Shown here: positions 5,332 to 44,993 of the stretch, piece by piece
How the letters are laid out: every line of letters begins with the position of its first letter
Position numbering within the stretch: position 1 is the stretch's first letter
Assembly (NCBI GenBank): GCA_051005755.1
Contig: JBPCJA010000194.1
Location: forward strand, 1-55,618
Source of the DNA: Solirubrobacteraceae bacterium
GTDB taxonomy: Bacteria; Actinomycetota; Thermoleophilia; Solirubrobacterales; Solirubrobacteraceae
Length of the DNA stretch: 55,618 nt
Reading direction: 5' to 3'
Position numbers and translations under genes: made by a program
The notes under the pieces: generated by a model
What the model was told of the DNA's origin: nothing
Seen by the model: the letters and a program-made list of their open reading frames with translations, nothing else
The model's database searches: none

Positions 5332-5574
5332 TCAGGTTGCCGCGGATCCGACCGTTGGGGCGAGGTCAGCGAGAGCCTCGACGTAGGCGCGAGCGTCATC
5401 GAGCGATGCGTGACTACCGTCGTGCATGCACCAACCCGACCCACTGGAGTGGCGCTCGGCAACCAGCCACCGATGACGTAGTTCCGTGTTGAGCTTCCAC
5501 GGGTTGGCTATGCGCCACTGACCATCGGGGGACTCGAACAGCCCGCGCTCGATCTTGCGCCAGTCGTCAGGCAT
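5332..5574 (-). CDS. Hypothetical small protein (80 aa)
   Basis: ATG 5574 inside ORF 5332..5664: MPDDWRKIERGLFESPDGQWRIANPWKLNTELRHRWLVAERHSSGSGWCMHDG. It has non-repetitive, protein-like composition. It overlaps the stop of the upstream 84-aa ORF by 8 nt. GC3 is visibly lower than in neighbouring genes. No family recognised. Confidence 0.45.
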   Translation of the reverse strand: MPDDWRKIERGLFESPDGQWRIANPWKLNTELRHRWLVAERHSSGSGWCMHDGSHASLDDARAYVEALADLAPTVGSAAT

Positions 5575-5821
5575 CGACGTTCTCCTTTGTGAGGTACTTC
5601 TCGTGGGTGACGTGTAGCACGCAGCCCGGAGCGAATGCTTCGTCGTCGAGGACGCGAGCGGCACGCAGGAGTGCGACTCGCTGCGCGTGCTGACGCGGAG
5701 CCAGCTCTCGCTTGTCGGCCCACCGCGTGAGCTGACGATGGGCGGCGAACCTCAGCACCGCCATCTCGTCGCCGGACAGGTACCGCGTCGGCCCATCGCT
5801 CGTGGATCGGGTCTGGGGCAC
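5567..5821 (-). CDS. Hypothetical small protein (84 aa)
   Basis: ORF 5567..5821: MPQTRSTSDGPTRYLSGDEMAVLRFAAHRQLTRWADKRELAPRQHAQRVALLRAARVLDDEAFAPGCVLHVTHEKYLTKENVDA. It is protein-like and overlaps the downstream ORF. No family recognised. Confidence 0.45.
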   Translation of the reverse strand: MPQTRSTSDGPTRYLSGDEMAVLRFAAHRQLTRWADKRELAPRQHAQRVALLRAARVLDDEAFAPGCVLHVTHEKYLTKENVDA

Positions 5822-12518: not shown

Positions 12519-13435
12519 TCGCGCCGCGCCGGGTGCTCGTCACCGGGGCGAGCGGGTTCATCGGCCGGCACGCGCTGCAGCCGCTGCTACGGCGCGGCTT
12601 CGAGGTCCACGCGGTGACGAGCCGTGAGCCGCCGTGGCAGGCGCCGCCGGGGGTGCGCTGGCATCGCGCCGACCTGCTGGCGCCCGCCGGGCCCGGCGAT
12701 CTGCTCGCGGCGGCGGCTCCGACCCACCTGCTGCACTTCGCCTGGTACGCCGAGCACGGCCGCTTCTGGACGTCGGCGGAGGACCTGCGCTGGACGGCCG
12801 CCACGATCGCGCTCGTGCAGGCCTTCGCCGAGCGCGGCGGCCGGCGGGCGGTGCTCGCGGGCACCTGCGCCGAGTACCGCTGGGGCGATCCCGGGCCGCG
12901 CATCGAAGGCGTGACGCCGCTGGAGCCCGCGACGCTCTACGGGACGGCGAAGCACGCCACGCGCGCGCTGCTGCAGGCCGCCTCGGCGGAGCTCGGCATC
13001 GAGTTCGCATGGGGCCGCGTCTTCTTCCTCTACGGTCCGGGCGAGGCGCCCGGCCGGCTCGTCGCATCGGTCGCCCGCGCGCTCCTCGCGGGCAAGCGCG
13101 CGGCCACGGGCGACGGCACGCAGATCCGCGACTTCCTGCACGTCGCCGACGTCGCGGGCGCGTTCGCCGCGCTGCTGGACAGCCCGGTGACGGGCGCGGT
13201 CAACATCGCCTCGGGCGAGGGCCGGCCCCTGCGGGACGTCATCGCCGCGATCGGCGCCGCGACCGGCCGCGAGGACCTGCTCGACGTCGGCGCGCTGCCG
13301 CCGCGGCCGGGCGATCCCGGCGAGCTCGTCGCAGGCGTCGGCCGCCTGCGAGACGAGGTCGGCTTCGTCCCGGCGATCGGCCTGCGCGACGGGATCGAGG
13401 GGACCGTGGCGTGGTGGCGCGAGCAGGCAGGGTGA
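12515..13435 (+). CDS. NAD-dependent epimerase/dehydratase-family SDR (likely NDP-4-ketohexose reductase)
   Basis: ATG 12515 overlaps the upstream TGA (ATGA). MIAPRRVLVTGASGFIGRHAL, LYGTAKHATRALL (YxxxK), IRDFLHVADVA. The reductase role is inferred from operon position. Confidence 0.8.
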   Translation: MIAPRRVLVTGASGFIGRHALQPLLRRGFEVHAVTSREPPWQAPPGVRWHRADLLAPAGPGDLLAAAAPTHLLHFAWYAEHGRFWTSAEDLRWTAATIALVQAFAERGGRRAVLAGTCAEYRWGDPGPRIEGVTPLEPATLYGTAKHATRALLQAASAELGIEFAWGRVFFLYGPGEAPGRLVASVARALLAGKRAATGDGTQIRDFLHVADVAGAFAALLDSPVTGAVNIASGEGRPLRDVIAAIGAATGREDLLDVGALPPRPGDPGELVAGVGRLRDEVGFVPAIGLRDGIEGTVAWWREQAG

Positions 13436-24605: not shown

Positions 24606-26708
24606 GTGACGGCCTTCGGCGGAAGCACTCCCAAGGCCTTTGTGAGCTGGGCTCACAGTGACGATGCGTGGCGGGACACCATTGCCCGCTTCGTCGTGGC
24701 GCTGCGCGAGTTCGGGATCGATGCCGACGTCGATCTGTTCCATGCCCATGACGGCTCCGTTGACTGGGCGACCTACGGTCCGAACGCGATCGAGCACAAC
24801 GACTTCGTCCTGCTTGCCACCAGCGCCGCCTACAAGCAACGGTGGGACGCTCCTCAGCTGGCTATCGCCACCACGGGCACGGGTGCGGGGGCGGCGCGCG
24901 AGGCAAACGTCCTCAAGGCCCTCTTCAATCGAGACCAGACCGCGTTCTTTCAGAAGGTGATCGTCGTCGTGCTCCCCGGCGCACGAGACGCCGACATTCC
25001 CAACGAGCTGGTGGCTGGCCTACCCAGGTTCGTCATTCCAGAGATCGATGAGCGCCACCTCAAGGACCTGCTTCGGCGCCTCACGGGCCAGCCGGCGTTC
25101 GTCCCCGCCCCGCCGGGTCAGGTACCCATTCTCCCTCCAGAGATCGGGGGCCCGGTCAGAACGACGCAGGCATCCGGAGACCCCGCCGGCAACGAGAAGG
25201 TCGCATCGAACCTCAAGCAGCGCCTCGACCAACTCGACAAGAGCATCGCGGCCACGCCCGCCGGTGCCGAGGACACGCGCAATGACGAAAAGGCGGAGCG
25301 CAGCGCGCTGTCAGCAGCGCTCAAGGCGATCACGAAACGCGCCCATGGCAATTCGCAGCCCTCGCGGAGATGGAGGCTGCCGGTCGTCGTGAGCGCGGTT
25401 GTGCTGGCACTGGTCGCCATCTACTCGCTCTCGGGCGCGGGCGGCGAGGCGGGCAAGGACGCCTTGGACGGGGCGCAGCTTGCGGTCAAGTACGTCAACG
25501 ACGGTGACGATCCCGAGTCGAAGCTGCCGCTCAAGGCCGGTGGGGGATTGCCTCGTCTCGGTGGTGCCAAGCTCGAGCTCGTTCCGACCGATGTGGGGAG
25601 CACTCGGTGTAAGAGCCAACCCGCGTTCAACCAGCTCGTGGATCGCGACCACGTCGTCGCGGTGGTCGGGGCGTACGAGTCGACAGTCACGCTGCAGGCG
25701 CTCATCGCGGCGGACCGGCGCCATGTGCCGCTCGTCAACGACAGCGCGACCGCGCCACCGTTGACGGAACGCAACCCAGCAGGGGTCATCAGGGCGTGCA
25801 CCGTCGATCCGGATCCGAGGCCGTCCCGGTGGTTCTTTCGTGTCGGGCCGAGCGACACTCGGGCCGCGGAGCAGTTCTTCACCCTCATCGAGGAAGCCGA
25901 GCGCAGCGGCAAGATTCCTCGCGTCCGCAAGGTGGCGATCCTGCACGAGAACAACGACTTCTTCGGCAACGCCGGCGCGGCGATCACCAAGGAGCTCGCG
26001 CAGCGCCGCCGGGTGGCGGTCCGCGCGTTTCGCTACCCCACCGTGCTGGGGCCGTCCGCGCCACGGTCAGATTCGTCCTGCACCGTTAAGGAGAGCACGA
26101 TCACGACGCTGCGGCGACGAGTGCAGCAGATGAAGCAGTACCAACCCGACGTCGTGTTCGCGCTGGGCTACAGACCCGATGCGATCGCGGCGGTCCAGAT
26201 GATGCAGAAGCTCGGCTACGTGCCTCCGCCGCTGCTCGCCTACGGTGGGGGCTTCGTCGACCGCACGTTCATCCGCGGCGTGCAGGCCGGCAATCGCGCG
26301 TGCGATCTGCCCCGCGCCGATCCCGCCCGCATCATCGCGCGGGTGGCGTGGTCACCGGACGGCAAGAGCCAGAGCCAAACGGCGCGGCGCATCGCACAGC
26401 TCTTCCAGAGGAGCTACAACCGACCGATGACCCCCACGGCAGCCTCCGGCTTCACGGCGATGCTGACGCTCGCGCGGGCGATCAACGATGCCGGTTCGCC
26501 CGATCCCGCAAAGATCCGGGCCGCGCTGCGCGCGCTCGACTTGCCGGCCGACGCGACGATCATGCCCTGGGGGGGCGTCAGGTTCGACGCTCACGGCCAG
26601 AACGTGCGGGCCCGGTTCGTGCTCCAGCAGATCATCAGGGGGAGCTATCGCGTCGTCTATCCGGGCGACGTCGCCGACGCCAGCGCCATCTGGCCCCCCT
26701 TCAGGTAG
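24606..26708 (+). CDS. Receptor-like single-pass membrane protein: N-terminal SEFIR/TIR-like domain, charged linker, one TM helix, C-terminal type-I periplasmic-binding-protein (LivK/Peripla_BP_6-like) domain
   Basis: GTG 24606. aa 10-80 read KAFVSWAHSDDAWRDTIARFVVALREFGIDADVDLFHAHDGSVDWATYGPNAIEHNDFVLLATSAAYKQRW (SEFIR/TIR-like strand-helix pattern). aa 244-256 RAHGNSQPSRRWR form a positive cluster. aa 257-275 LPVVVSAVVLALVAIYSL form the TM helix (nt about 25374-25430). The C-terminal region has AQLAVKYVNDG, GAKLELVPTDVGS, VVAVVGAYESTVTLQ, WFFRVGPSD and VAILHENNDFFGN, as in branched-chain amino-acid-type binding proteins. Confidence 0.85.
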   Translation: MTAFGGSTPKAFVSWAHSDDAWRDTIARFVVALREFGIDADVDLFHAHDGSVDWATYGPNAIEHNDFVLLATSAAYKQRWDAPQLAIATTGTGAGAAREANVLKALFNRDQTAFFQKVIVVVLPGARDADIPNELVAGLPRFVIPEIDERHLKDLLRRLTGQPAFVPAPPGQVPILPPEIGGPVRTTQASGDPAGNEKVASNLKQRLDQLDKSIAATPAGAEDTRNDEKAERSALSAALKAITKRAHGNSQPSRRWRLPVVVSAVVLALVAIYSLSGAGGEAGKDALDGAQLAVKYVNDGDDPESKLPLKAGGGLPRLGGAKLELVPTDVGSTRCKSQPAFNQLVDRDHVVAVVGAYESTVTLQALIAADRRHVPLVNDSATAPPLTERNPAGVIRACTVDPDPRPSRWFFRVGPSDTRAAEQFFTLIEEAERSGKIPRVRKVAILHENNDFFGNAGAAITKELAQRRRVAVRAFRYPTVLGPSAPRSDSSCTVKESTITTLRRRVQQMKQYQPDVVFALGYRPDAIAAVQMMQKLGYVPPPLLAYGGGFVDRTFIRGVQAGNRACDLPRADPARIIARVAWSPDGKSQSQTARRIAQLFQRSYNRPMTPTAASGFTAMLTLARAINDAGSPDPAKIRAALRALDLPADATIMPWGGVRFDAHGQNVRARFVLQQIIRGSYRVVYPGDVADASAIWPPFR

Positions 26709-36111: not shown

Positions 36112-36219
36112 TCATGCGCATGTCGCCCCGCGTCGAACGTCGTCCAGTTCCGCGTCGCCTCGCTGCAGCGCCAGGATGTCCTCGCCGGTGAGGCGGCCGG
36201 CCGGTGCATCGCTCGTCAT
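36112..36219 (-). CDS. Possible 35-aa ORF, translationally coupled
   Basis: ATG 36219 overlaps the TGA of ORF 36216-36509 (ATGA). MTSDAPAGRLTGEDILALQRGDAELDDVRRGATCA has mostly G/C at codon position 3. No other support. Confidence 0.25.
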   Translation of the reverse strand: MTSDAPAGRLTGEDILALQRGDAELDDVRRGATCA

Positions 36220-36509
36220 GTCCGCCCGAGCTGGCGAAGGCCGAACTCGATGTCGCAGAGCTGGCCGTGGCGTGCCTGCGGTGGCTGCAGCCGGCCGATC
36301 ATGCGCTGATGCTCGCTGCACGGATCGTCGACGACGAGCTCGATCGGGGCGATGCGCTCGGCCGCGCGATCGGACGCCGTGCCACGTCGGCGCGCAAGCT
36401 CGGTCAGCTCGGTGCGGAGGTCGTCGTCGACGGGCTCGTGGAAGCGCACCCGGACCATGCGGCGCTCGCGCTGGGTCAGCCCGAGCCGCTCGTCAAGGCT
36501 GATCGTCAC
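36216..36509 (-). CDS. Hypothetical small protein (~97 aa)
   Basis: GTG 36509 (or 36515) within ORF 36216..36656: VTISLDERLGLTQRERRMVRVRFHEPVDDDLRTELTELARRRGTASDRAAERIAPIELVVDDPCSEHQRMIGRL. I counted 11 non-G/C third positions in 97 codons, against about 22 in 102 for the antisense ORF 36204..36743. It is divergent from the HTH-deformylase gene. Confidence 0.4.
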   Translation of the reverse strand: MTISLDERLGLTQRERRMVRVRFHEPVDDDLRTELTELARRRGTASDRAAERIAPIELVVDDPCSEHQRMIGRLQPPQARHGQLCDIEFGLRQLGRT

Positions 36510-36810
36510 ATGCACGCATCCGCAGACCAGCCGGCCGGCGCGATACGCGCGCCCCAGATGCCAGCGGCCAGTGCTCGAACGGTGCTCAGTGTCTACCGCT
36601 GCCGGCGAGGTGTCGCGGACGAACGGCCTTTGGCTCGTACTGACTGCAAGACGCATGTGCCTCCCTCGGCTCGACGGGACCGTCAGGCGCGCGTTGGGAG
36701 CGCCCAGGGTGAGCGGATCGCCGGCGTTCGGATCCGACGGTGAGGTACCGTCAGATCCAGCGCCGTGACCGCATCAGCACCCGATCACGGCTGCAGGGGA
36801 TGACTGAAGG

Positions 36811-38361
36811 ATGCGCTCGGCTCACTCAGACCTCACTCAGCCTTCTGGCGACGCCGCCCGGCGCACAGTCGAGGCCGCCCGCGCCGCCGAGAGCTTCATC
36901 GCGGATCTACGGCGCTGGCGCGAGGTTCGCGGGCTGTCACAGAAGCGGCTTGCGGCCGAGATGGCGTACGACGCGTCGTACGTGAGCAAGATCGAGACGG
37001 GCCAGCAGCAGCCGACCCACGAGTTCGCTCGCCGAGCCGACGAGGTTCTCGATGCCGGCGGCAGCCTCATCCGGCGTTGCCGCGACTACACCTCCAGCCG
37101 TCTGATGACGAGTGGGGCACAGCCCCCCGTTCGTCTGGCCAGTGACGACGCGGGCTCGTTGGCTCACAGTCTCCTCGTGCGCCACGAGGAAGCCGAATGC
37201 CGCTACGTCGACGGCGTCTATCACCTCCACATGCGCCGCCAGCTCTACAACGCCAGCGATGCGCCGGTCACCCGCTACCTCATCCGGATCGCGGTCGATC
37301 GCCATCCCAAGACCCCGGAGCGATCGAACGAGCTGTATCGGCAGCGACCGTTGACCTGGGAGGAGATCGGGCTGCGCGCATGGTGCGAGGGCGAGGAGCT
37401 GCACTGGGAGGTCAAGCACGACCGCGACGCCTTCAAGGAGATCTGGCTGCTGCTGGAGAGCGGGCAACGCAAGCTGCCGCTGTACCCCGGCCAGAGCACG
37501 TGGCTTGAGTACCGGTACACGGTCGGCGAGGACAAGTGGGGCCAATGGTTTCAGCGCGCGATCCGGCTGCCGACCGAGCGCCTCAGCGTGCAGCTCGTCT
37601 TCCCCGCCGAACTCGACCCCGCCGTCTGGGGTACCGAGACGACGATGACCGCGCGGGCCGTTCCCGTGCGCACGGCCATCATGCAGCGCGACGACGGCGA
37701 CCAGCGCATCTTCAGCTGGTCGACCGAGAGCCCGCCGCTGCACGCCCGCTACCGCTTCGAGTGGCGCCTCGCCGGCCAGGACCTCAGCGCCGAGCACATG
37801 CGCCCCAGCGAGCGCATGCGCGCCCTCGGCGTCGTCCAGGCGCACGACCCGGCCCTGCGCCAGCCCTGTGAGCCGTTCGACCTTCCCGCCGATCGCGACC
37901 TCGCGCACAGCGTGAGCGAGCTGCTGACGGCGTTCCTGCATCCGCTGCGCGCCGCGCACTCCTTCGGCAAGGGCATGGGCCTCGCGGCCCCGCAGATCGG
38001 CATCGCGCGCCGCGCCGCCGTCGTCCAGGCGCCTGACCAGCCGCCCCTCGTGCTCCTCAACCCGCGCATCCTCGACGCATCGGCGGACACCGACGAGCAG
38101 TACGAGGGCTGCCTGAGCTTCTTCGACGTCCGCGGCATCGTCGAGCGGCCGTTGCGCATCGAGGTCGAGCACACCGCGCTCGACGGCGCGGCGCACATCA
38201 CGACCTTCGAGCACGCGGCTGCCCGCCTCTGGGCCCACGAGATCGACCACCTCGACGGCAAGCTCTACACCGACCGCATGCCGCCCGGCCTCGAGCCGGT
38301 ACCGGTGGAGCGCTACCACGCCACGGGGACCGCATGGCGGTATGGCTCGCCCCGCGCCTAA
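36811..38361 (+). CDS. Fusion protein: XRE-type HTH, unrecognised ~250-aa domain and a complete peptide deformylase domain
   Basis: HTH: LRRWREVRGLSQKRLAAEMAYDASYVSKIETGQQQPTHEFARRADEVL. Middle domain (aa about 100-335) has no recognisable motif. PDF region from the in-frame ATG at 37816: MRALGVVQAHDPALRQPCEPF, GKGMGLAAPQIG (motif 1), EGCLSF (motif 2), AHEIDHLDG (motif 3). There is no stop between the parts. Confidence 0.85.
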   Translation: MRSAHSDLTQPSGDAARRTVEAARAAESFIADLRRWREVRGLSQKRLAAEMAYDASYVSKIETGQQQPTHEFARRADEVLDAGGSLIRRCRDYTSSRLMTSGAQPPVRLASDDAGSLAHSLLVRHEEAECRYVDGVYHLHMRRQLYNASDAPVTRYLIRIAVDRHPKTPERSNELYRQRPLTWEEIGLRAWCEGEELHWEVKHDRDAFKEIWLLLESGQRKLPLYPGQSTWLEYRYTVGEDKWGQWFQRAIRLPTERLSVQLVFPAELDPAVWGTETTMTARAVPVRTAIMQRDDGDQRIFSWSTESPPLHARYRFEWRLAGQDLSAEHMRPSERMRALGVVQAHDPALRQPCEPFDLPADRDLAHSVSELLTAFLHPLRAAHSFGKGMGLAAPQIGIARRAAVVQAPDQPPLVLLNPRILDASADTDEQYEGCLSFFDVRGIVERPLRIEVEHTALDGAAHITTFEHAAARLWAHEIDHLDGKLYTDRMPPGLEPVPVERYHATGTAWRYGSPRA

Positions 38362-38527: not shown

Positions 38528-39625
38528 TCACGAGGTCGGCACGGGTGTTGTCGCGGGTCGGTCGTCGCCGTCGCATCCGGTGCTTGCGGTCACCCGCCGC
38601 CGTTGGCGCGCGGTGCGCAGGTCAATGCCGGTAAGGACACGGGCCAGAGCAAGGGCCATCGCGCCAAGGATCACACCGCCGACGTCGTCGAGGACGTAGT
38701 GCCACCCGAGGTAGATCGTGGCGGTCGCCGTCACGGCGAACCAGATCCACAACGCCATCCTCAGTCGTCTTCCGAGCCCGAGGAGGTGAGCCGACATCGC
38801 GGCGGTGAAGCTCATCGAGATGTGGAGCGAGGCAAAGGCCGCGATGCTCTGGGGCGTCCCGGTCGCGGGATCGTGAAGGAACGCGACCCGCTGGTCGAGC
38901 AGCACGCTCTGCAGATGGGTGACCTCGGAAGGCGGGAGAGCGGCGAAGGCGGCCGGTTCGACGTAGATGGGTCCCAGCGAGGGCAGCAGAAAGTAGCTCG
39001 CGGCACCCAGCAGCCAGTTGATCGACTGGGCGGTTGTGTAGAAGAGGCCCGCCTGCAGGTCGCGGCAGAAGACGAGGGCGAGGCCGATCGTTAGCGGCAG
39101 GAAGACGATGAAGGCCACGTAGGCGCTCGAGAGGACGTGCGTCGGGAGGCCTATCCCGAGGAGGGTGTGCAGCAGCGCGGCGGGATCGTTGCCGCCGAAC
39201 AGATTGCGATCGAGATCGGCCAGCTGGCGGTCGAAGAGGTCGCCGGGCCTGAGCAGGGGAACCACGCTCTTGAGGTTGCGATAGGCCATGTAGGTCGCGT
39301 AGAAGCCGACCAGCGCGCTGCCCGCGGCCACTCCCCGTCCGAGGGTCCAGCGCTCGCGCCGGACGCGCCGCATCGCCGCTCGCGACGGAGGAAAGCCCCC
39401 CGAGCGACCGGCGCGGACCACGATGTCGAGCCCCACCAGCACCACCGTCCCGCAGCCCACCAGGGCCAGGTACAGAGCGGCCACGTGATCGGGGTCTCGC
39501 AGCGGCAATTCCACCGCGTGGGTCGCCAGTAGCGCTGCGAGGACAGTGACGACGGCCACCACCGGGCCCGCCACCGTGTCGCGCCACCGGGCGGAGTGGG
39601 GCCACGACCGCGATCGCGTGGTCAC
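38528..39625 (-). CDS. PAP2_C-type integral membrane phosphotransferase (AUR1/IPC-synthase/SMS-like), copy 2 of a tandem pair
   Basis: GTG 39625 overlaps the upstream TGA (GTGA). Multiple TM helices. FASLHISMSF (SxH motif) and IYLGWHYVLDDVGGVILG (HYxxD motif). Highly similar to 39622-40707 along its whole length. Confidence 0.8.
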   Translation of the reverse strand: MTTRSRSWPHSARWRDTVAGPVVAVVTVLAALLATHAVELPLRDPDHVAALYLALVGCGTVVLVGLDIVVRAGRSGGFPPSRAAMRRVRRERWTLGRGVAAGSALVGFYATYMAYRNLKSVVPLLRPGDLFDRQLADLDRNLFGGNDPAALLHTLLGIGLPTHVLSSAYVAFIVFLPLTIGLALVFCRDLQAGLFYTTAQSINWLLGAASYFLLPSLGPIYVEPAAFAALPPSEVTHLQSVLLDQRVAFLHDPATGTPQSIAAFASLHISMSFTAAMSAHLLGLGRRLRMALWIWFAVTATATIYLGWHYVLDDVGGVILGAMALALARVLTGIDLRTARQRRRVTASTGCDGDDRPATTPVPTS

Positions 39626-40707
39626 GCCGGTGTGGGATTCGGCGTGGACGGTCGTCGGGCCGTGCGCACGTCGAAGCCGGTCAGGACAGAGGCCAGGGCG
39701 ACCGCCATCGCGCCGAGGATCAGGCCGCCGAGGTCGTCGAGGACGTAATGCCAGCCCAGGTAGATGGTGGCCGCGGTGGTCACGGCGAGCAGGACCCACG
39801 CCGCGATTTTGATGGGCCGCCCGAGCCTCAGCAGATGGACCACCAGCGCGGCGGTGAAGAAGATCGAGACGTGCAGCGAGGAGAACGCGGCGATGCTCTG
39901 CGCCGTGCCGGCTGCCGGGTCGCGCAGGAACTCGAGCCGCTGGTCGAACAGGACGCCCTGTAGTTGCGTGACGTCGGAGACCGGCAGGTTCGCGAAGACG
40001 GCGGGCTCCGCGTAGACCGGTCCCAGCGAGGGCAAGAGGAAATAGCTTCCCGCGCCCAGCAGCCAGTTGATCGACTGAGCCGTCGTGTAGAAGAGACCCG
40101 CCTGCAGGTCGCGCGAGAAGACAAGGGCGACGGCAAGCGTCCCCGGTATGAAGACGAAGAAGAGCATGTACGCGGCCGACAGGACGTGGGCGGGGATTCC
40201 TGTGCCGAGGAGGGCATGGAGCAGCGCGCCGGGATCGTTGCCGCCGAACAGACTGCGATCGAGATCGGCCAGCTGGCGGTCGAAGAGCTCCCCGGGCCGC
40301 AGCAGGGGAACCACGCTCTTGAGGTTGCGATACGCCAGGTAGGTGATGTAGAAGCTGACCAGGGCGCTGCCGACTGCGACTCCCCGCCCCAGGGTCCAGC
40401 GCTCACGCCGGACGCGCTGCATGGATGCTCGCGACGGCCGCAGCCTGCCCGAGCGACGACCCGCACGGACCACGACGTCGAGAACTACGAGCACCGCGAC
40501 AAGGCAGAGGATCAACACGAGACGTCGGCCGGCGACGTGGTCGGGATCCCGCAGCGGCAGCCCCGCCGCGTCGGTTGTAAGCAGCGCCGCGATGACCGAG
40601 ACCATCGCCACCGCCGGGCCGGCGACCAGCATGCGCCGCGGGAGTGGCTCGGGGGCGGCGGGCGGGGCCGTGGAAGCCGCCACGCGGCGTTCGTGCAGTG
40701 CGAGCAT
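39622..40707 (-). CDS. PAP2_C-type integral membrane phosphotransferase (AUR1/IPC-synthase/SMS-like), copy 1 of a tandem pair
   Basis: ATG 40707 (MLALHERR) inside track ORF 39622..41232; the upstream extension is not protein-like. FSSLHVSIFF and IYLGWHYVLDDLGGLILG. Shared blocks YRNLKSVVPLLRPG.LFDRQLADLDR.LFGGNDP and LQAGLFYTTAQSINWLLGA.SYFLLPSLGP.Y.EPA. Confidence 0.8.
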   Translation of the reverse strand: MLALHERRVAASTAPPAAPEPLPRRMLVAGPAVAMVSVIAALLTTDAAGLPLRDPDHVAGRRLVLILCLVAVLVVLDVVVRAGRRSGRLRPSRASMQRVRRERWTLGRGVAVGSALVSFYITYLAYRNLKSVVPLLRPGELFDRQLADLDRSLFGGNDPGALLHALLGTGIPAHVLSAAYMLFFVFIPGTLAVALVFSRDLQAGLFYTTAQSINWLLGAGSYFLLPSLGPVYAEPAVFANLPVSDVTQLQGVLFDQRLEFLRDPAAGTAQSIAAFSSLHVSIFFTAALVVHLLRLGRPIKIAAWVLLAVTTAATIYLGWHYVLDDLGGLILGAMAVALASVLTGFDVRTARRPSTPNPTPA

Positions 40708-41384
40708 CGAAGGGGACGTGCTCAGGTCTTGAGGCCGACGATCATGGGATATGCGCGGTCGACGCAACGCGTCGCAGTGATAGGAGGACACCTCGGACAG
40801 CCGTGGAGCGACGGGTTGCCAGAAACCGGTGTTTATCAGCCCAACGCTCTCAACGACGGCCCCTCGCTGCGAAGTCCAGACCACGCGAGCGCGCCGTTTC
40901 CGCCGGCCTTTCTGCGGGCCTATGGCACGGGCTGGCTCCGCCGCACCTGTAGGAACGCCGCCTTCGACGCCGCCGGAGTCCTGGGCAGGCCAAACGCCTG
41001 GCTTGTGACGTGCTCGCAGGACGCCGCCTCGAACGGGGATCCGAAGGCGTGCGCGGCGGATCGTAACGATGCTGGCGCAGCTCGTTCCCGAGGTCATGGC
41101 GTTGCAGCCGTCGCGGGTGCTGACGTCCGAAGCGAGCGCCGAGCGACTCGGCGGCGCGAGCCCCTCTCGTCGAGGACTCCGCTTGCGCATTGCGCGAGGA
41201 GGAGCCGTCTTGGGCTCCTTGTCTGACGCCAAGTCGTGGCCATCTGCGGCGGTGAGGGCGGCGGCGCAGATTCGTATAGCGGTGCCCGGGTACGCGCGCC
41301 GGTGTGCCGTCGGTGCGCTCGAGCTCGAGTTTTGGCGATCACCCCGCGGCGGGCCTTGCCGCGCATCCGCGTCAGGCTCGGCTG

Positions 41385-42203
41385 GTGCCGGTCACGGCTC
41401 TGACGTCCGCCGAGATCTCGTTACCGAGCGGGCCCGATGCGTTGCGTGTTCGGGAGCGGATCGCAGCCCTCGCCGACACCGTCGATCTTGTTGGACTGAC
41501 TGACAATCACGCCGGCCAACCGCGGATGTCTCCGCTTGCCGCGGTTGCGCTTGCGAGGGAGCAGGGCGTCGCGACGGTCGTTCACGTTTCGTGTCGCGAT
41601 CGCAATCGGCTGGCGCTGCAGTCCCAGGTCGTGGGGGCCGCCGCGCTCGGATCTGAAGGTGTCCTGTGTCTGTACGGTGATCCGGTCGAAGGAGTTGCGC
41701 GCGTCAAGGACCTCACCGCGACGGCGTTGATCGGGCAAGCCAAGGCGTGGGCCGCGCCCCACACGCTCGCCGTGGGAGCGGTCGTCAACCCGTTTGCGCC
41801 GGACGTCGATCGCGAGGTACGCCTGCTCGAGCGAAAGATCGCCGCCGGCGTGGACTTCCTGCAATCGCAGATGATCTTTGACCTCGAAGCGCTGCGCGTC
41901 TTCCTTGACGGCGTCGGCGACCTGCTCGTCGGCGTGCGCTTCTACGCCAGCGTCGCGCTGCTACGCGATCAGCGCATGGCCGATCACGCACGCGCCCTGC
42001 CCGGCTGTCTGATCCCCGAGCGCGCATATCGGCAGATCGGCATCGGCGGGGGAACAGCGCTCGCCTCTGAGCTTGCGACGGAACTGGCCGGCATCTCGGG
42101 GGTCGACGCGCTGCATATCTTCCCGCTCGGAGCCGAGACGGCAACCCGCGATGTCGCCGCGGCATTCCGCACTGCCCGCGGCGCCCCAGCTCAGCGCCGG
42201 TAG
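41385..42203 (+). CDS. Methylenetetrahydrofolate reductase (MetF/MTHFR) family protein
   Basis: Frame of ORF 41304..42203. GTG 41385 (VPVTALTSAEISLP) is preferred over the track start. VHVSCRDRNRLALQSQVVGAAALGSEGVLCLYGDP, VNPFAPD, ERKIAAGVDFLQSQMIFD. Confidence 0.75.
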   Translation: MPVTALTSAEISLPSGPDALRVRERIAALADTVDLVGLTDNHAGQPRMSPLAAVALAREQGVATVVHVSCRDRNRLALQSQVVGAAALGSEGVLCLYGDPVEGVARVKDLTATALIGQAKAWAAPHTLAVGAVVNPFAPDVDREVRLLERKIAAGVDFLQSQMIFDLEALRVFLDGVGDLLVGVRFYASVALLRDQRMADHARALPGCLIPERAYRQIGIGGGTALASELATELAGISGVDALHIFPLGAETATRDVAAAFRTARGAPAQRR

Positions 42204-42682: not shown

Positions 42683-43951
42683 TCAGCCGGCCTCGTCGGC
42701 GCGTGCCAGTCGCGCCGCCCGGGCCAGCAGGTAGCGCTGTTCGGGCGAGCTGGAGGTGCGGCGCGCGGCGCCCTGGTAGGCACGCTGGGCGGCGGCGCGG
42801 TCGCCGGCCATCTCGAGCAGGTGGGCGCGCACGGCCTCGAGGCGGTGGCCGTGGTCGAGGCTGCCGTCGGCGGCCAGCTGCTCAACCCTCCGCAGGCCCG
42901 CCTCCGGACCCTCGACCATCGCCAACGCGACGGCGTGATTCAGCCACACCACCGGATTGTCCGAGCGACGGGCGAGCAGCTCGTAGAGCGCCAGGATCTG
43001 CGGCCAGTCGGTCTCGCCGGCGCTCGGCGCCTCGTCATGGACGGCGGCGATCGCGGCCTGTAGCCGATACGGGCCCGCGGGCGACCGTGCGAGCGCCGTC
43101 TCGATCAGGGCGACACCCTCGGCGATCTGCTCGCGGTCCCACTGGCTGCGGTCCTGCTCGGCCAGCGGGATGAGCGCACCGTCAGCCGCGGTCCTTGCCG
43201 TCCGTCGCGCGTCGGTCAGCAGCATGAGTGCCAGCAGGCCTGCGACCTCGCCCTGGTCGGGCAGGAGCCGATGCGTCATCCGCGCGAGCCGAATCGCCTC
43301 GGCGGCCAGCTCGACGCGGTGCAGGCTCGGCCCGGTCGACGCGACGTAGCCCTCGTTGAAGATCAGGTACAGCACGTGGAGCACCGCCTGCAGCCGCTGC
43401 GGACGCTCGGCCGGGGGCGGCAGCCTGAACGGCCGGTTCGATGCCTTGACCTGCTGCTTCGCGCGGCTGATCCGCTGCGCCATCGTCTTCTCCGGCACGA
43501 GGAACGCGTGGGCGATCTCGGCTGTGGTCAGGCCGCCGACGGCGCGCAGCGCGAGCGCGATCTGCGACGCCGGCGTGAGCGCCGGGTGGCAGCACAGGAA
43601 CAGCAGGATCAGCCCGTCGTCGGCGTCGGTCGGCGGCGGCCCGGCCCCGGCGGCCGGAGCCGCGAAGTCGGCCGGCAGGACCCACGAGTGGACCTCGTCC
43701 TCGCGACGCTGACGGGCCTGCTCGGCGCGCAGCAGGTCGGTCAGGCGGCGCGATCCGACCGTGATCAGCCAGGCGACGGGATTGTCGGGAAGCCCCTCAC
43801 CGGGCCATTGCGTGGCGGCCGCCAGCAACGCCTCCTGGACGGCGTCCTCGGCGGTGTCGAAGTGGCCGTAGCGACGGACCAGCGCGCCGAGGACCTGCGG
43901 CGCGCACTCGCGCAGCAGGTCCTCCAGCTCGGCGCTGCTGGAGGGTCGCAC
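42683..43951 (-). CDS. ECF-type RNA polymerase sigma factor with long C-terminal helical-repeat extension
   Basis: GTG 43951 (VRPSSSAELEDLL). Region 2: DTAEDAVQEALLAAATQWP...NPVAWLITVGSRRLTDLLR. Region 4: LILLFLCCHPALTPASQIALALRAVGGLTTAEIAHAFLVPEKTMAQRISRAK. It lies 8 nt downstream of the YCII gene, which is the usual partner layout. Confidence 0.85.
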   Translation of the reverse strand: MRPSSSAELEDLLRECAPQVLGALVRRYGHFDTAEDAVQEALLAAATQWPGEGLPDNPVAWLITVGSRRLTDLLRAEQARQRREDEVHSWVLPADFAAPAAGAGPPPTDADDGLILLFLCCHPALTPASQIALALRAVGGLTTAEIAHAFLVPEKTMAQRISRAKQQVKASNRPFRLPPPAERPQRLQAVLHVLYLIFNEGYVASTGPSLHRVELAAEAIRLARMTHRLLPDQGEVAGLLALMLLTDARRTARTAADGALIPLAEQDRSQWDREQIAEGVALIETALARSPAGPYRLQAAIAAVHDEAPSAGETDWPQILALYELLARRSDNPVVWLNHAVALAMVEGPEAGLRRVEQLAADGSLDHGHRLEAVRAHLLEMAGDRAAAQRAYQGAARRTSSSPEQRYLLARAARLARADEAG

Positions 43952-43959
43952 CGGCGGCG

Positions 43960-44376
43960 CTATGCCTCCGTCGAGGCTGGCGCCGACTGGATCGGGCGGA
44001 TGTCGACCGGCAGACCGTCGACGCTGCCGCCGGGGCCCGGGCACGTGGTGACGTAGGCAGCGATCTCGGTCGCGCGGTCGATGCCGTCGACGTCGACGAT
44101 CCAGAATCCGGCGAGGACCTCCTTGCTCTCCGCGTACGGGCCGTCGGTCACGACCGCCTCGCCGTCGACGCGCTGGACGCGACGCGCGTGCGCTGGATCG
44201 CTCAGGCCCTGGCCGTCGACCCACTCGCCGCGGGCGACGAGGTCCTCGTTGAGCTCGTTCATGAACGTGAACATCGCCTCGAGCTCCTGCGGCGCCCAGG
44301 TCGGCACGTCGGTTTCCTTGCCCGCCATCGCGTCGTAGTGCTGCTGGGAGGCCTCCATGATGATCATGTAGCGCAT
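43960..44376 (-). CDS. YCII-related (DGPF) domain protein
   Basis: ATG 44376, preceded by gaaaggaaca (AGGA). MRYMIIMEASQQHYDAM, VVTDGPYAESKEVLAGFWIVDVD. Confidence 0.85.
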   Translation of the reverse strand: MRYMIIMEASQQHYDAMAGKETDVPTWAPQELEAMFTFMNELNEDLVARGEWVDGQGLSDPAHARRVQRVDGEAVVTDGPYAESKEVLAGFWIVDVDGIDRATEIAAYVTTCPGPGGSVDGLPVDIRPIQSAPASTEA

Positions 44377-44693: not shown

Positions 44694-44993
44694 TCAGTCG
44701 AGATCGAACGCGGCGTGGATGGCCGCTGTCAAGGCGCGTTCCTGGGCGGGGAGCAGCACGCCGATCTGGGTGCCGAGCGCTGTGGTCGGGACGGTCACGA
44801 TGTTGTCGCAGCTCACGACGCTGGCTTGGGTCAGACCGTTGGCCGGTCCGATCGGCACCTCGGTGGACAGGCCTCTTGGCGTTGTGGTGATCGGCGCCAC
44901 CGTCACACGTGTGAGATGGGGGCGTACCAGCTCTCGCGTCAACACGAGCACCGGACGCTGCTTGTCGAGTTGCGCGAGGTGGATCGGGTGCAC
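44694..44993 (-). CDS. mazF: MazF/PemK-family type II toxin (endoribonuclease)
   Basis: GTG 44993. LDKQRPVLVLTRELVRPHLTRVTVAPITTTPRGLSTEVPIGPANGLTQASVVSCDNIVTV. 1-nt overlap with the antitoxin stop. Confidence 0.82.
   Translation of the reverse strand: MHPIHLAQLDKQRPVLVLTRELVRPHLTRVTVAPITTTPRGLSTEVPIGPANGLTQASVVSCDNIVTVPTTALGTQIGVLLPAQERALTAAIHAAFDLD

Follow-up and report, generated by a model that had tools for sequence, protein, structure and literature searches.

Introduction

Peptide deformylase (PDF) is treated as a stand-alone housekeeping enzyme and antibiotic target. Here we describe a gene on contig JBPCJA010000194.1 of a Solirubrobacteraceae bacterium which encodes a protein of 516 amino acids (aa) consisting of an XRE-type helix-turn-helix (HTH), a previously undescribed beta-rich domain which we call mid, and a complete PDF. 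The whole stretch of DNA which was analysed, 55,618 nucleotides (nt) in length, is referred to as the window, and all positions are window coordinates. Unlike the stand-alone enzyme of ~150–200 aa encoded in def-fmt operons, the PDF of the window is part of a three-domain protein whose gene has unrelated neighbours.

XRE HTHs tied to a HEXXH metallopeptidase are familiar from ImmR/ImmA, CapH/CapP and the HTH_3 plus Peptidase_M78 fusions (RamB), and are typical of mobile-element and defence regulation. In our protein the hydrolase is a PDF with Cys/His/His ligands rather than an M78/ImmA protease, an extra beta domain lies between the two and nothing suggests the cleavage of a repressor; models of the ImmR/ImmA and CapH/CapP type matched the window protein at the HTH only. 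In the trigger enzymes PutA, BirA and NadR, a DNA-binding domain and an active enzyme share one polypeptide, and the state of the substrate can control transcription. The window protein has this one-component or trigger-enzyme layout, with a DNA-binding output and an enzymatic input domain in a single polypeptide (as judged from Pfam and a structural model), but its enzyme is dispensable in some orthologues and the intervening mid looks like the primary sensor. To our knowledge, no deformylase-based trigger enzyme has been described.

The only PDF fusion mentioned in a 2025 survey of accessory PDFs is def-fmt (PMC12690207). The Exiguobacterium def-fmt protein of that study is likewise a natural fusion, which was shown to be functional, but it joins two enzymes of the same pathway, whereas here a PDF is joined to a transcription-factor domain and a putative sensor. 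Accessory Def proteins (PF01327; Def2-type, PMC12690207) share with the PDF of the window family the fold, the three motifs, the Cys/His/His ligands plus Glu and Gln and a frequent location on mobile DNA, and the window-family PDF is itself likely to be accessory rather than housekeeping. It differs from them in that it forms the C-terminal third of a 516-aa protein, has no linkage to fmt, can be lost, and carries EGC(L/W)SFFD, AHE in place of QHE and a Y..G..W.Y tail.

DUF4062 (NIR) has been shown to be an NADase directed against phages, in which variable C-terminal regions serve as sensors (bioRxiv 10.64898/2026.09.04.749371 and 10.64898/2026.06.25.731849), and in the Metis system, described in one of these two preprints, the partner phosphatase MisB removes the basal activating ligand. 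As in DUF4062/NIR, Evangelion, Vesta and Metis, mid can occupy the C-terminal sensor position behind effector-type domains, and a PDF could clear a ligand as MisB does; unlike those systems, the window protein has an HTH at the effector position, and neither preprint mentions mid or PDF. Finally, in pSAM2-type integrative and conjugative elements of actinomycetes (AICEs), KorSA and the Nudix protein Pif form a repressor and immunity pair, and all AICEs have a regulator of the GntR or XRE family (PMC2440964). Homologues of our gene in AICE-type loci are placed alike: a KorSA-like GntR gene immediately precedes them and/or a Nudix gene follows, and RepSA, an integrase and an FtsK-like gene lie beside them. 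The window copy differs in having no integrase or RepSA gene detectable by tblastn, and the copies in Micromonosporaceae are chromosomal core genes.

Domain architecture of the window protein

The gene and the parts of its product are as follows.

36,811–38,361, forward strand: complete coding sequence (CDS) of the HTH-mid-PDF protein; a single open reading frame (ORF) with an ATG start, 516 aa plus stop, and a GC content at third codon positions (GC3) of 0.90
36,907–37,074, forward strand: XRE-type HTH, aa 33–88 (Pfam HTH_31 and HTH_3; predicted helices)
37,114–37,164, forward strand: flexible linker 1, aa 102–118 (predicted local distance difference test, pLDDT, <50; mean pairwise identity 0.17)
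37,165–37,776, forward strand: beta-rich mid domain, aa 119–322 (AlphaFold2 model; no match in Pfam, PHROGs or PADLOC)
37,777–37,815, forward strand: linker 2 or junction, aa 323–335, ending in a conserved (P/A)-S-(E/D/Q)-x before Met336 (pLDDT dip at 324–328; identity 0.30)
37,816–38,310, forward strand: PDF domain, aa 336–500 (Pfam PF01327, Foldseek, motifs)
37,972–37,995, forward strand: PDF motif 1, GMGLAAPQ (motif search)
38,104–38,118, forward strand: PDF motif 2, EGCLS (motif search)
38,236–38,250, forward strand: PDF motif 3, HEIDH (motif search)
38,311–38,358, forward strand: C-terminal tail with invariant Y502, G506, W509 and Y511, predicted to be disordered (43-sequence alignment; pLDDT <50 for 503–516)

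A preliminary description of this DNA, made from the sequence alone, had read 36,811–38,361 as one uninterrupted ORF of 516 codons with an XRE HTH at aa ~30–85 and a PDF bearing all three catalytic motifs, and these three claims hold. The ORF has no internal stop and shows coding-type GC3 throughout (0.73–1.0 for each 90-nt stretch in the frame of the gene); values are also high over 37,711–37,891, and therefore the frame is continuous across the junction near 37,800. An earlier start is ruled out by an in-frame TGA at 36,805–36,807. The ATG of the window gene is replaced by GTG at the equivalent spot in the closest homologue locus, L005, whose protein is 80% identical. The GC content of the window (~70%) fits an actinomycete.

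The HTH was matched above the gathering thresholds by Pfam HTH_31 (aa 33–88; E 1.2e-11, 45.2 bits against a cutoff of 27) and HTH_3 (E 1.8e-6, 28.3 bits against 23), and its helices (44–51, 55–62 and 70–80) were modelled by AlphaFold2 with pLDDT >90. PADLOC and PHROGs returned only generic HTH regulator models for this region; PADLOC-DB v2 gave no defence model beyond the HTH, all of its matches (HTH_VI, CapH, the RmrA N-terminus and C-protein) lying inside aa 19–82.

Pfam Pep_deformylase (PF01327) covers aa 341–491 with E 4.4e-36 and 124.3 bits against a cutoff of 22.8, spanning profile positions 4–151 of 156. The residues G388, G390, Q395, E432, G433, C434, H476, E477 and H480 are invariant in 43 out of 43 family members. 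Solved PDFs in the PDB match the domain by sequence (down to E 2e-18), and its model superposes on them in Foldseek with a target-normalised template modelling (TM) score of 0.81–0.87, a root mean square deviation (rmsd) of 2.2–2.9 Å and 28–34% identity, so the metal-ligand geometry which the preliminary description had flagged as a possible failing is not missing. As modelled, the PDF domain is structurally canonical and complete in its motifs. It falls below the cutoffs of the NCBIfam housekeeping equivalogs TIGR00079 / PRK00150 (94.9 against 103.95 bits and 106.4 against 125 bits). No frame of the window contains the Fmt signature S-L-L-P-x-x-R-G, in agreement with the earlier remark that no fmt is nearby, or a second set of PDF motifs.

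In an alignment of 43 sequences, mean pairwise identity was 0.61 for the HTH, 0.67 for mid and 0.65 for the PDF, compared to 0.17–0.30 for the linkers; judged by this alignment, the three domains are under similar purifying selection. The tail residues Y502, G506, W509 and Y511 were invariant in 43/43 sequences. Three well-folded domains were obtained in the full-length AlphaFold2 model (mean pLDDT 86, predicted TM score (pTM) 0.48).

The mid domain

The preliminary description had recognised no motif in the middle of the protein. This stands, as there is no Pfam match across aa ~90–335, but the span which it proposed (aa ~100–335) does not, since the folded part covers only aa ~119–322 between low-confidence linkers (102–118 and 324–328). 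Modelled alone by AlphaFold2, mid has a mostly beta fold (pLDDT 86, pTM 0.81). It has no match in Pfam (including Peptidase_M1_N), PHROGs or PADLOC. The best Foldseek matches were the N-terminal beta-saddle of M1 aminopeptidases (LTA4H, ERAP1/2 and APN), ribophorin I, the VIT region of ITIH1 and a putative protease of the DUF3857 type, with E of about 1e-6, TM 0.43–0.51, rmsd 5–8 Å and about 8% identity in these model-based comparisons. The M1 aminopeptidase N-domain packs against the HEXXH catalytic domain and helps to hold the N-terminus of the substrate. We regard the M1 N-domain, ribophorin I and VIT as the closest structural matches of mid by analogy of fold; homology is not demonstrated. 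A fold search of BFVD with mid found giant-virus M1/VIT-like proteins only, and no phage relatives.

An exhaustive phmmer search with mid alone yielded 346 representative clusters. Of the 83 reasonably complete mid representatives, 51 were joined to HTH_31, 19 to PDF, 4 to Metallophos, 2 to DUF4062, 2 to Trypsin_2 and 1 to an inositol monophosphatase with a weak nSTAND3 match. The signature KWGxWFQRxxRLPT was retained, and N147, G244, R249, T255 and W318 were invariant across all architectures. The variety of partners argues that mid is a mobile module, most often joined to an XRE HTH.

Several of these partners are of effector type. DUF4062 and Metallophos match both variants of the PADLOC candidate PDC-S60 as well as a CBASS-type endonuclease effector, and Trypsin_2, next to which a Trypco1 gene is found, matches protease models of retrons and of Lamassu; PADLOC matches in these relatives are restricted to the N-terminal domains. 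No PDF gene was called on the short contig which carries a Trypsin-mid gene (L107). Plasmid searches with the Metallophos-mid protein P0211 and with mid alone gave no further architectures. It should be noted that the precomputed Pfam list of P0422, a 520-aa metagenomic member of the family, has PF27520 at the N-terminus in place of HTH_31, which may be another N-terminal swap.

Association of mid with the deformylase

The relationship between mid and PDF is best seen in the Micromonosporaceae, in which the fusion gene occupies a fixed chromosomal site in 19–27 loci, with DUF6311 membrane protein genes and a divergent 267-aa gene upstream, and a convergent flavohaemoprotein gene and a gene for an Rce1-like/CPBP protein downstream. 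A clade of HTH+mid-only proteins of ~306–330 aa, 55–57% identical to the Micromonosporaceae fusions, has the same synteny in 4/4 loci examined (L102–L105). Three of these loci continue beyond the gene; in these, the flavohaemoprotein gene lies within a few bases of its stop or overlaps it, and no PDF gene is found nearby. The contig of the fourth ends at the gene. One such protein, P0290, aligns to aa 24–320 of the window protein and then ends. On these comparisons, the HTH+mid-only proteins are orthologues which have cleanly lost the PDF and whose remainder is still under selection. Together with the count of mid partners given above (51 of 83 with HTH_31 and only 19 with PDF), these syntenic orthologues indicate that HTH+mid is the evolutionary core of the family and that the PDF is an accessory partner which can be fused, split off or lost. 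Across the Micromonosporaceae loci (L036–L085 and L102–L105) the flavohaemoprotein consists of Globin and FAD_binding_6, any functional link to nitric oxide or redox detoxification being conjectural, and the divergent 267-aa protein has a Cys-rich C-terminus.

A natural split is found on two plasmids of S. cellulosae (NZ_CP109221, locus L100, 7,959–9,496, and NZ_CP109098), with an HTH-mid CDS of 323 aa followed by a PDF CDS of 189 aa. The GTG of the PDF gene overlaps the upstream TGA and is preceded by AGGAG 5 nt upstream, and the split genes therefore form a translationally coupled pair. In a third layout, the protein P0137 has the order DUF4062-mid-PDF and is 50% identical to the window protein over aa 121–511, including the SERM junction and the Y..G..WRY tail. 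In the fourth, a stand-alone PDF gene lies 22–30 nt upstream of a Metallophos-mid gene, on the same strand, in 2/2 loci (L106 and L108), whose Metallophos-mid proteins (P0211 and P0241) share only 34% identity. The L106 stand-alone PDF, which has the same Y..G..W.Y tail, shows 47% identity to the PDF domain of the window, and both stand-alone PDFs carry the unusual motif EGCLSFF. We roughly estimate that a PDF gene would be expected beside an arbitrary gene in the order of 1 in 1000 cases. The occurrence of a PDF next to Metallophos-mid in both of these divergent loci, in addition to the fusions, argues for a functional partnership of mid and PDF. On the sequences compared, four layouts link mid to this PDF subtype: fused, split but coupled, behind DUF4062, and as a PDF gene upstream of Metallophos-mid. 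A metagenome scan with the Metallophos-mid alignment returned 80 loci without mid or PDF; its patterns were keyed on the Metallophos part and the scan is hence uninformative. In L108 (4,590–5,246 and 7,186–8,253) a gene with a NERD domain comes after the pair of PDF and Metallophos-mid genes, and the vicinity also has a GntR/UTRA regulator, an HTH_17 gene and an integrase of phage type, which gives the locus an island-like appearance.

Distribution and genomic setting of the family

A search of 5.8 billion proteins gave 1793 matches. Among the best 120, whose architecture was inspected, nearly all were 486–524 aa long with the same HTH+PDF Pfam pair; they came from Streptomyces, Kitasatospora, Streptacidiphilus, Lentzea, Yinghuangia and many metagenomes, and were named only “peptide deformylase”. 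A search of one genome per GTDB species found at least 581 stretches encoding a relative, of which the best 80 were all full length (~500 aa) and belonged to Streptomyces, Micromonospora, Amycolatopsis, Actinomadura, Nocardia, Kibdelosporangium, Saccharopolyspora and other genera. Full-length copies were also found on 16 actinomycete plasmids and 12 IMG/VR contigs, while cultured phage genomes contained stand-alone PDFs only and no fusion. The preliminary description had allowed that the architecture might turn out to be common and already characterised: it is common, but no paper on the HTH-PDF fusion, its middle domain or the linkage of mid to PDF was found in the searchable literature.

Outside the Micromonosporaceae, the gene is often found in AICE, plasmid or prophage-like DNA, with neighbours including RepSA, tyrosine integrase, Xis, an FtsK/SpoIIIE transfer protein, a DnaB-type helicase, DNA methylase, DUF6907, WhiB and NUDIX, and occasionally GmrSD, M78 with DUF4411, and Fic. 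The AICE gene set of integrase, RepSA and FtsK-like gene is present at homologue loci L003, L005, L007, L009, L014, L025 and others. In about 9 loci a KorSA-like GntR gene precedes the gene on the same strand at a distance of 57–273 nt, and in 2–3 loci a NUDIX gene directly follows it. Clustering of neighbours over more than 80 loci did not identify any family-wide partner gene, the recurrent clusters being Micromonosporaceae synteny or mobile-element genes. A general link to envelope-glycan genes (DUF6311, glycosyltransferases (GT) of types GT1 and GT2, DegT, flippase) was considered and rejected, as these are lineage-specific blocks which are homologous neither to each other nor to the neighbours in the window. 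At three related loci on Streptomyces plasmids and a contig (L034, L100 and L101), a divergent operon of GT1, two hypothetical genes and GT2 is found just upstream of the gene; this operon is not homologous to the polysaccharide genes of the window or to DUF6311.

Proposed function and alternative explanations

One of the readings offered by the preliminary description was that of a DNA-binding regulator which carries a deformylase-type domain as sensor or effector, and this is now the best reading, the domains being equally conserved and the catalytic residues invariant in 43/43 sequences. More specifically, the gene may well encode a one-component transcriptional switch in which the mid+PDF module senses or processes N-formyl peptides, a reading which we put forward tentatively. 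In such a switch mid and PDF would act jointly on a conserved ligand, most plausibly the N-termini of N-formyl-methionyl peptides, because the PDF active site shows strict conservation, no other domain is as well conserved as mid, and the mid fold is like that of a domain which helps to hold substrate N-termini beside a HEXXH domain. The mid domain would bind or report the ligand, and an active PDF would turn it over, thus keeping its basal level low and resetting the signal (by analogy with MisB). The state of the ligand would then alter DNA binding by the HTH, and with it the transcription of the gene itself or of its neighbours, which on mobile elements would be regulatory and immunity genes of the kor/pif type. 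With the highest conservation of the three domains (0.67), mid probably does not track phage proteins, which evolve fast. Turnover which keeps the basal signal low would explain why the PDF is found in cis, in trans, or is dispensable where the PDF of the host suffices.

A number of observations weigh against this switch. Binding of the HTH to DNA, the genes under its control and the nature of the ligand are inferred, and an active PDF could be merely a useful enzyme with no role in signalling. The full-length model, with a pTM of 0.48, demonstrates no interface between mid and PDF. The likeness of the mid fold to its best matches is only moderate (TM about 0.45–0.5, about 8% identity), and a mid-only profile matched only de novo designed Ig proteins, and no natural homologue, among PDB sequences. 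The DUF4062-mid-PDF protein was a singleton in the homology search and sits on a 2.7-kb contig, and the linkage of PDF to Metallophos-mid is confined to the 2/2 loci examined, with none added by the wider scan. The Micromonosporaceae copy is a stable chromosomal gene without mobile-element or defence neighbours. Upstream of the window gene, the palindrome at 36,730–36,758 is not conserved in the 80%-identical homologue L005, and simple scans for sigma-70 consensus promoters and intrinsic terminators found nothing, as expected at such GC content.

A broader proposal is that mid and this PDF subtype form a hitherto unrecognised sensing cassette for the formylation state of protein N-termini with interchangeable outputs, which we consider speculative and rather doubtful as it stands. 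Here mid would bind N-formyl-Met peptides and its dedicated PDF would clear the basal ligand; the trigger would be deformylation which is blocked or overwhelmed, for example when phages or mobile elements take over translation or when natural inhibitors of PDF such as actinonin are present. The outputs would be transcription (HTH, as in the window protein), NAD+ depletion (DUF4062) and cleavage of phosphoesters or nucleic acids (Metallophos). If true, bacteria would possess an equivalent of the formyl-peptide sensing known from the innate immunity of animals.

The gene could instead be a mobile, self-regulated accessory deformylase which supplies extra or inhibitor-tolerant capacity, for example against the actinonin-type inhibitors of soil actinomycetes, the HTH merely autoregulating and mid serving as a spacer, dimerisation or ribosome-docking domain. 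This explanation is unlikely but deserves serious attention: the catalytic residues are invariant and the fold is canonical, accessory PDFs are common, often lie on mobile elements and can lower actinonin susceptibility (PMC12690207), and family members are located on plasmids and AICEs. The scores below the NCBIfam equivalog cutoffs are as expected of a non-housekeeping paralogue, and the window has no fmt. The preliminary suggestion of an extra def paralogue is incomplete, given that the PDF is an add-on to an HTH+mid core which persists in its absence, that the mid-PDF pair recurs with other partners and that mobile elements often carry the family. Syntenic orthologues which retain HTH+mid and drop the PDF show that the PDF is dispensable, conservation is highest in mid, which is also found, without the HTH, beside Metallophos, Trypsin_2 and DUF4062, and autoregulation leaves unexplained why a stand-alone PDF of the same subtype is paired with HTH-less Metallophos-mid genes. 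We give still less credence to a single-gene anti-phage or anti-plasmid defence or element-immunity protein, in which mid, with or without the PDF, would detect an infection cue and the HTH would switch on defence or element genes, in parallel to relatives whose output is an NADase, phosphoesterase or protease. Such a role would fit with the fusions of mid to DUF4062, Metallophos and Trypsin_2, which match defence effector models (DUF4062 being a proven NADase effector), with neighbours including GmrSD, M78 with DUF4411, NERD, DNA methylase and Fic toxin genes, and with the frequent location on mobile elements, including the kor/pif immunity slot of AICE loci. However, the HTH-mid-PDF protein has no toxic effector and is matched by PADLOC only at its HTH, mid is highly conserved rather than diversifying, the Micromonosporaceae locus is fixed and of housekeeping type, no defence-island genes are directly adjacent to the window copy, and the family is absent from cultured phages and goes unmentioned in the defence papers searched.

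Two further explanations concern the gene product itself. The preliminary description had raised a possible dual-product gene, giving the 516-aa fusion and a free PDF of ~181 aa started at Met336 (ATG at 37,816). Met336, preceded by (P/A)-S-(E/D/Q)-x, was present in 84/84 loci whose sequences were inspected for the junction, is placed where a stand-alone PDF would begin, and, as seen from the natural version with two genes, the PDF is able to work as a polypeptide of its own. Internal initiation is nevertheless improbable and was not borne out: Shine-Dalgarno (SD)-like motifs at functional spacing precede Met336 in only 2/96 loci, compared to 16% at control in-frame positions, and are thus depleted; Micromonospora copies have AGCGACCGG-ATG, without an SD; in the natural split the start of the PDF lies 8 codons upstream of Met336, at a new GTG which is served by a separate AGGAG; and GC3 shows no discontinuity. 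The conserved (P/A)-S-E-x-M lies in a predicted short helix, so that its conservation can be structural. As for an assembly or sequencing artefact, a missed stop or frameshift joining two separate genes, one lineage really does have two genes, but this explanation can be given next to no weight and was rejected. There is no stop or frameshift near 37,800, where the preliminary description had thought that one might be revealed; the coding signal is continuous, and the same uninterrupted architecture is found in hundreds of independent genomes, plasmids and metagenomes, including nearly all of the best 120 database matches and, as a ~500-aa layout, all of the 80 best genome loci.

Whichever role applies, actinomycetes have a large family, so far unstudied, whose intact PDF is tied physically or genetically to a new beta domain as well as to domains of signalling or effector type, and which is often located on conjugative elements or plasmids. 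Should the PDF belong to a sensor, N-terminal formylation status would for the first time be connected to bacterial gene regulation or immunity, and a function would be given to several hundred genes annotated merely as “peptide deformylase”. Such a sensor could also bear on actinonin self-resistance or sensing in antibiotic producers, and on the trigger for AICE transfer or immunity. Even on the plainest reading, annotation pipelines mislabel a family of transcription factors, and counts of “extra PDF genes” in actinomycetes are inflated.

Surroundings of the gene in the window

The gene is flanked by a Polysacc_synt_3 flippase-like gene upstream and two PAP2_3 paralogues downstream. The features closest to it are as follows.

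36,216–36,656, reverse strand: divergent small gene, 146 aa, shared only with the closest homologue locus L005
36,730–36,758, no strand assigned: palindrome GGATCCGACGGT-N5-ACCGTCAGATCC, a weak candidate operator (12-nt arms, 92% complementary)
36,794–36,810, forward strand: conserved leader CAGGGGATGACTGAAGG before the start codon, a probable ribosome-binding region, the same in L005 as in the window, with divergent intergenic DNA flanking it
38,528–39,799 and 39,622–41,232, reverse strand: two tandem PAP2_3 membrane phosphatase paralogues, convergent with the gene and immediately downstream

Phylogenetic footprinting of the intergenic DNA in Micromonospora picked out three blocks which are conserved: GTCAAG-N5-TGTCG, upstream of which an inverted CGACA/TTGACAA half-site is often found; a promoter-like ACGTGAAAC-TGATACT; and an SD sequence, GAGGAAGC, 8 nt before the ATG. 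The GTCAAG-N5-TGTCG blocks were found in PDF-bearing Micromonosporaceae loci only. These upstream blocks are compatible with an operator and promoter.

For the small divergent gene, GC3 was ambiguous as to strand, and conservation at the protein level favours the minus strand: against L005, the minus frame of 36,216–36,656 has 81/125 identical residues (65%, score 400), compared to 47/87 (score 209) for the plus frame. The overlapping plus-strand ORF called by the pipeline in L005 is probably on the wrong strand. The 146-aa product had no match in Pfam, PADLOC or PHROGs.

L005, in which the gene lies beside an integrase and RepSA, shares DNA homology with the window at 36,242–36,557 and 36,760–38,338. 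A further 432 bp of the window (5,370–5,801) has 74% DNA identity to L005 5,092–5,511, a region of small ORFs beside RepSA; the 84-aa ORF at 5,567–5,821 (reverse strand) had no Pfam match. In L005 the counterpart of 5,370–5,801 directly abuts that of 36,242–36,557, while in the window ~30.4 kb separates the two, with a polysaccharide-biosynthesis region between them. The segments 5,370–5,801 and 36,242–38,338 may thus represent a decayed AICE which was split by an insertion. Searches with tblastn, using integrase, RepSA and Xis queries from L003 and L005, found nothing in the 55.6-kb window; no FtsK-like query was made. The window copy is not part of an intact element. It looks like an orphan module of ~2.1 kb, made up of the gene and the divergent 146-aa gene, between a polysaccharide-export gene and two PAP2 genes, and may be a remnant of an AICE.

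Several other features of the window lie away from the gene. ARAGORN called tRNA-Ala(GGC) at 12,628–12,720 and tRNA-Cys(GCA) at 41,071–41,164; both are 93–94 nt long, lie inside ORFs supported by GC3 and far from the gene, and are probably false positives. Downstream are an MTHFR-like gene (41,304–42,203, forward strand), a sigma factor of the extracytoplasmic function type with a C-terminal DUF6596 (42,683–44,224, reverse strand) and a MazF/PemK-type toxin gene (44,694–44,993, reverse strand; PemK_toxin E 2.3e-12). A 700-aa ORF at 24,606–26,708 (forward strand) combines an N-terminal SEFIR/TIR-like domain (SEFIR E 1.5e-7, TIR_2 9e-5) with Peripla_BP_6 (E 2e-32), and from this layout of effector plus ligand sensor its product might be a defence or signalling protein.

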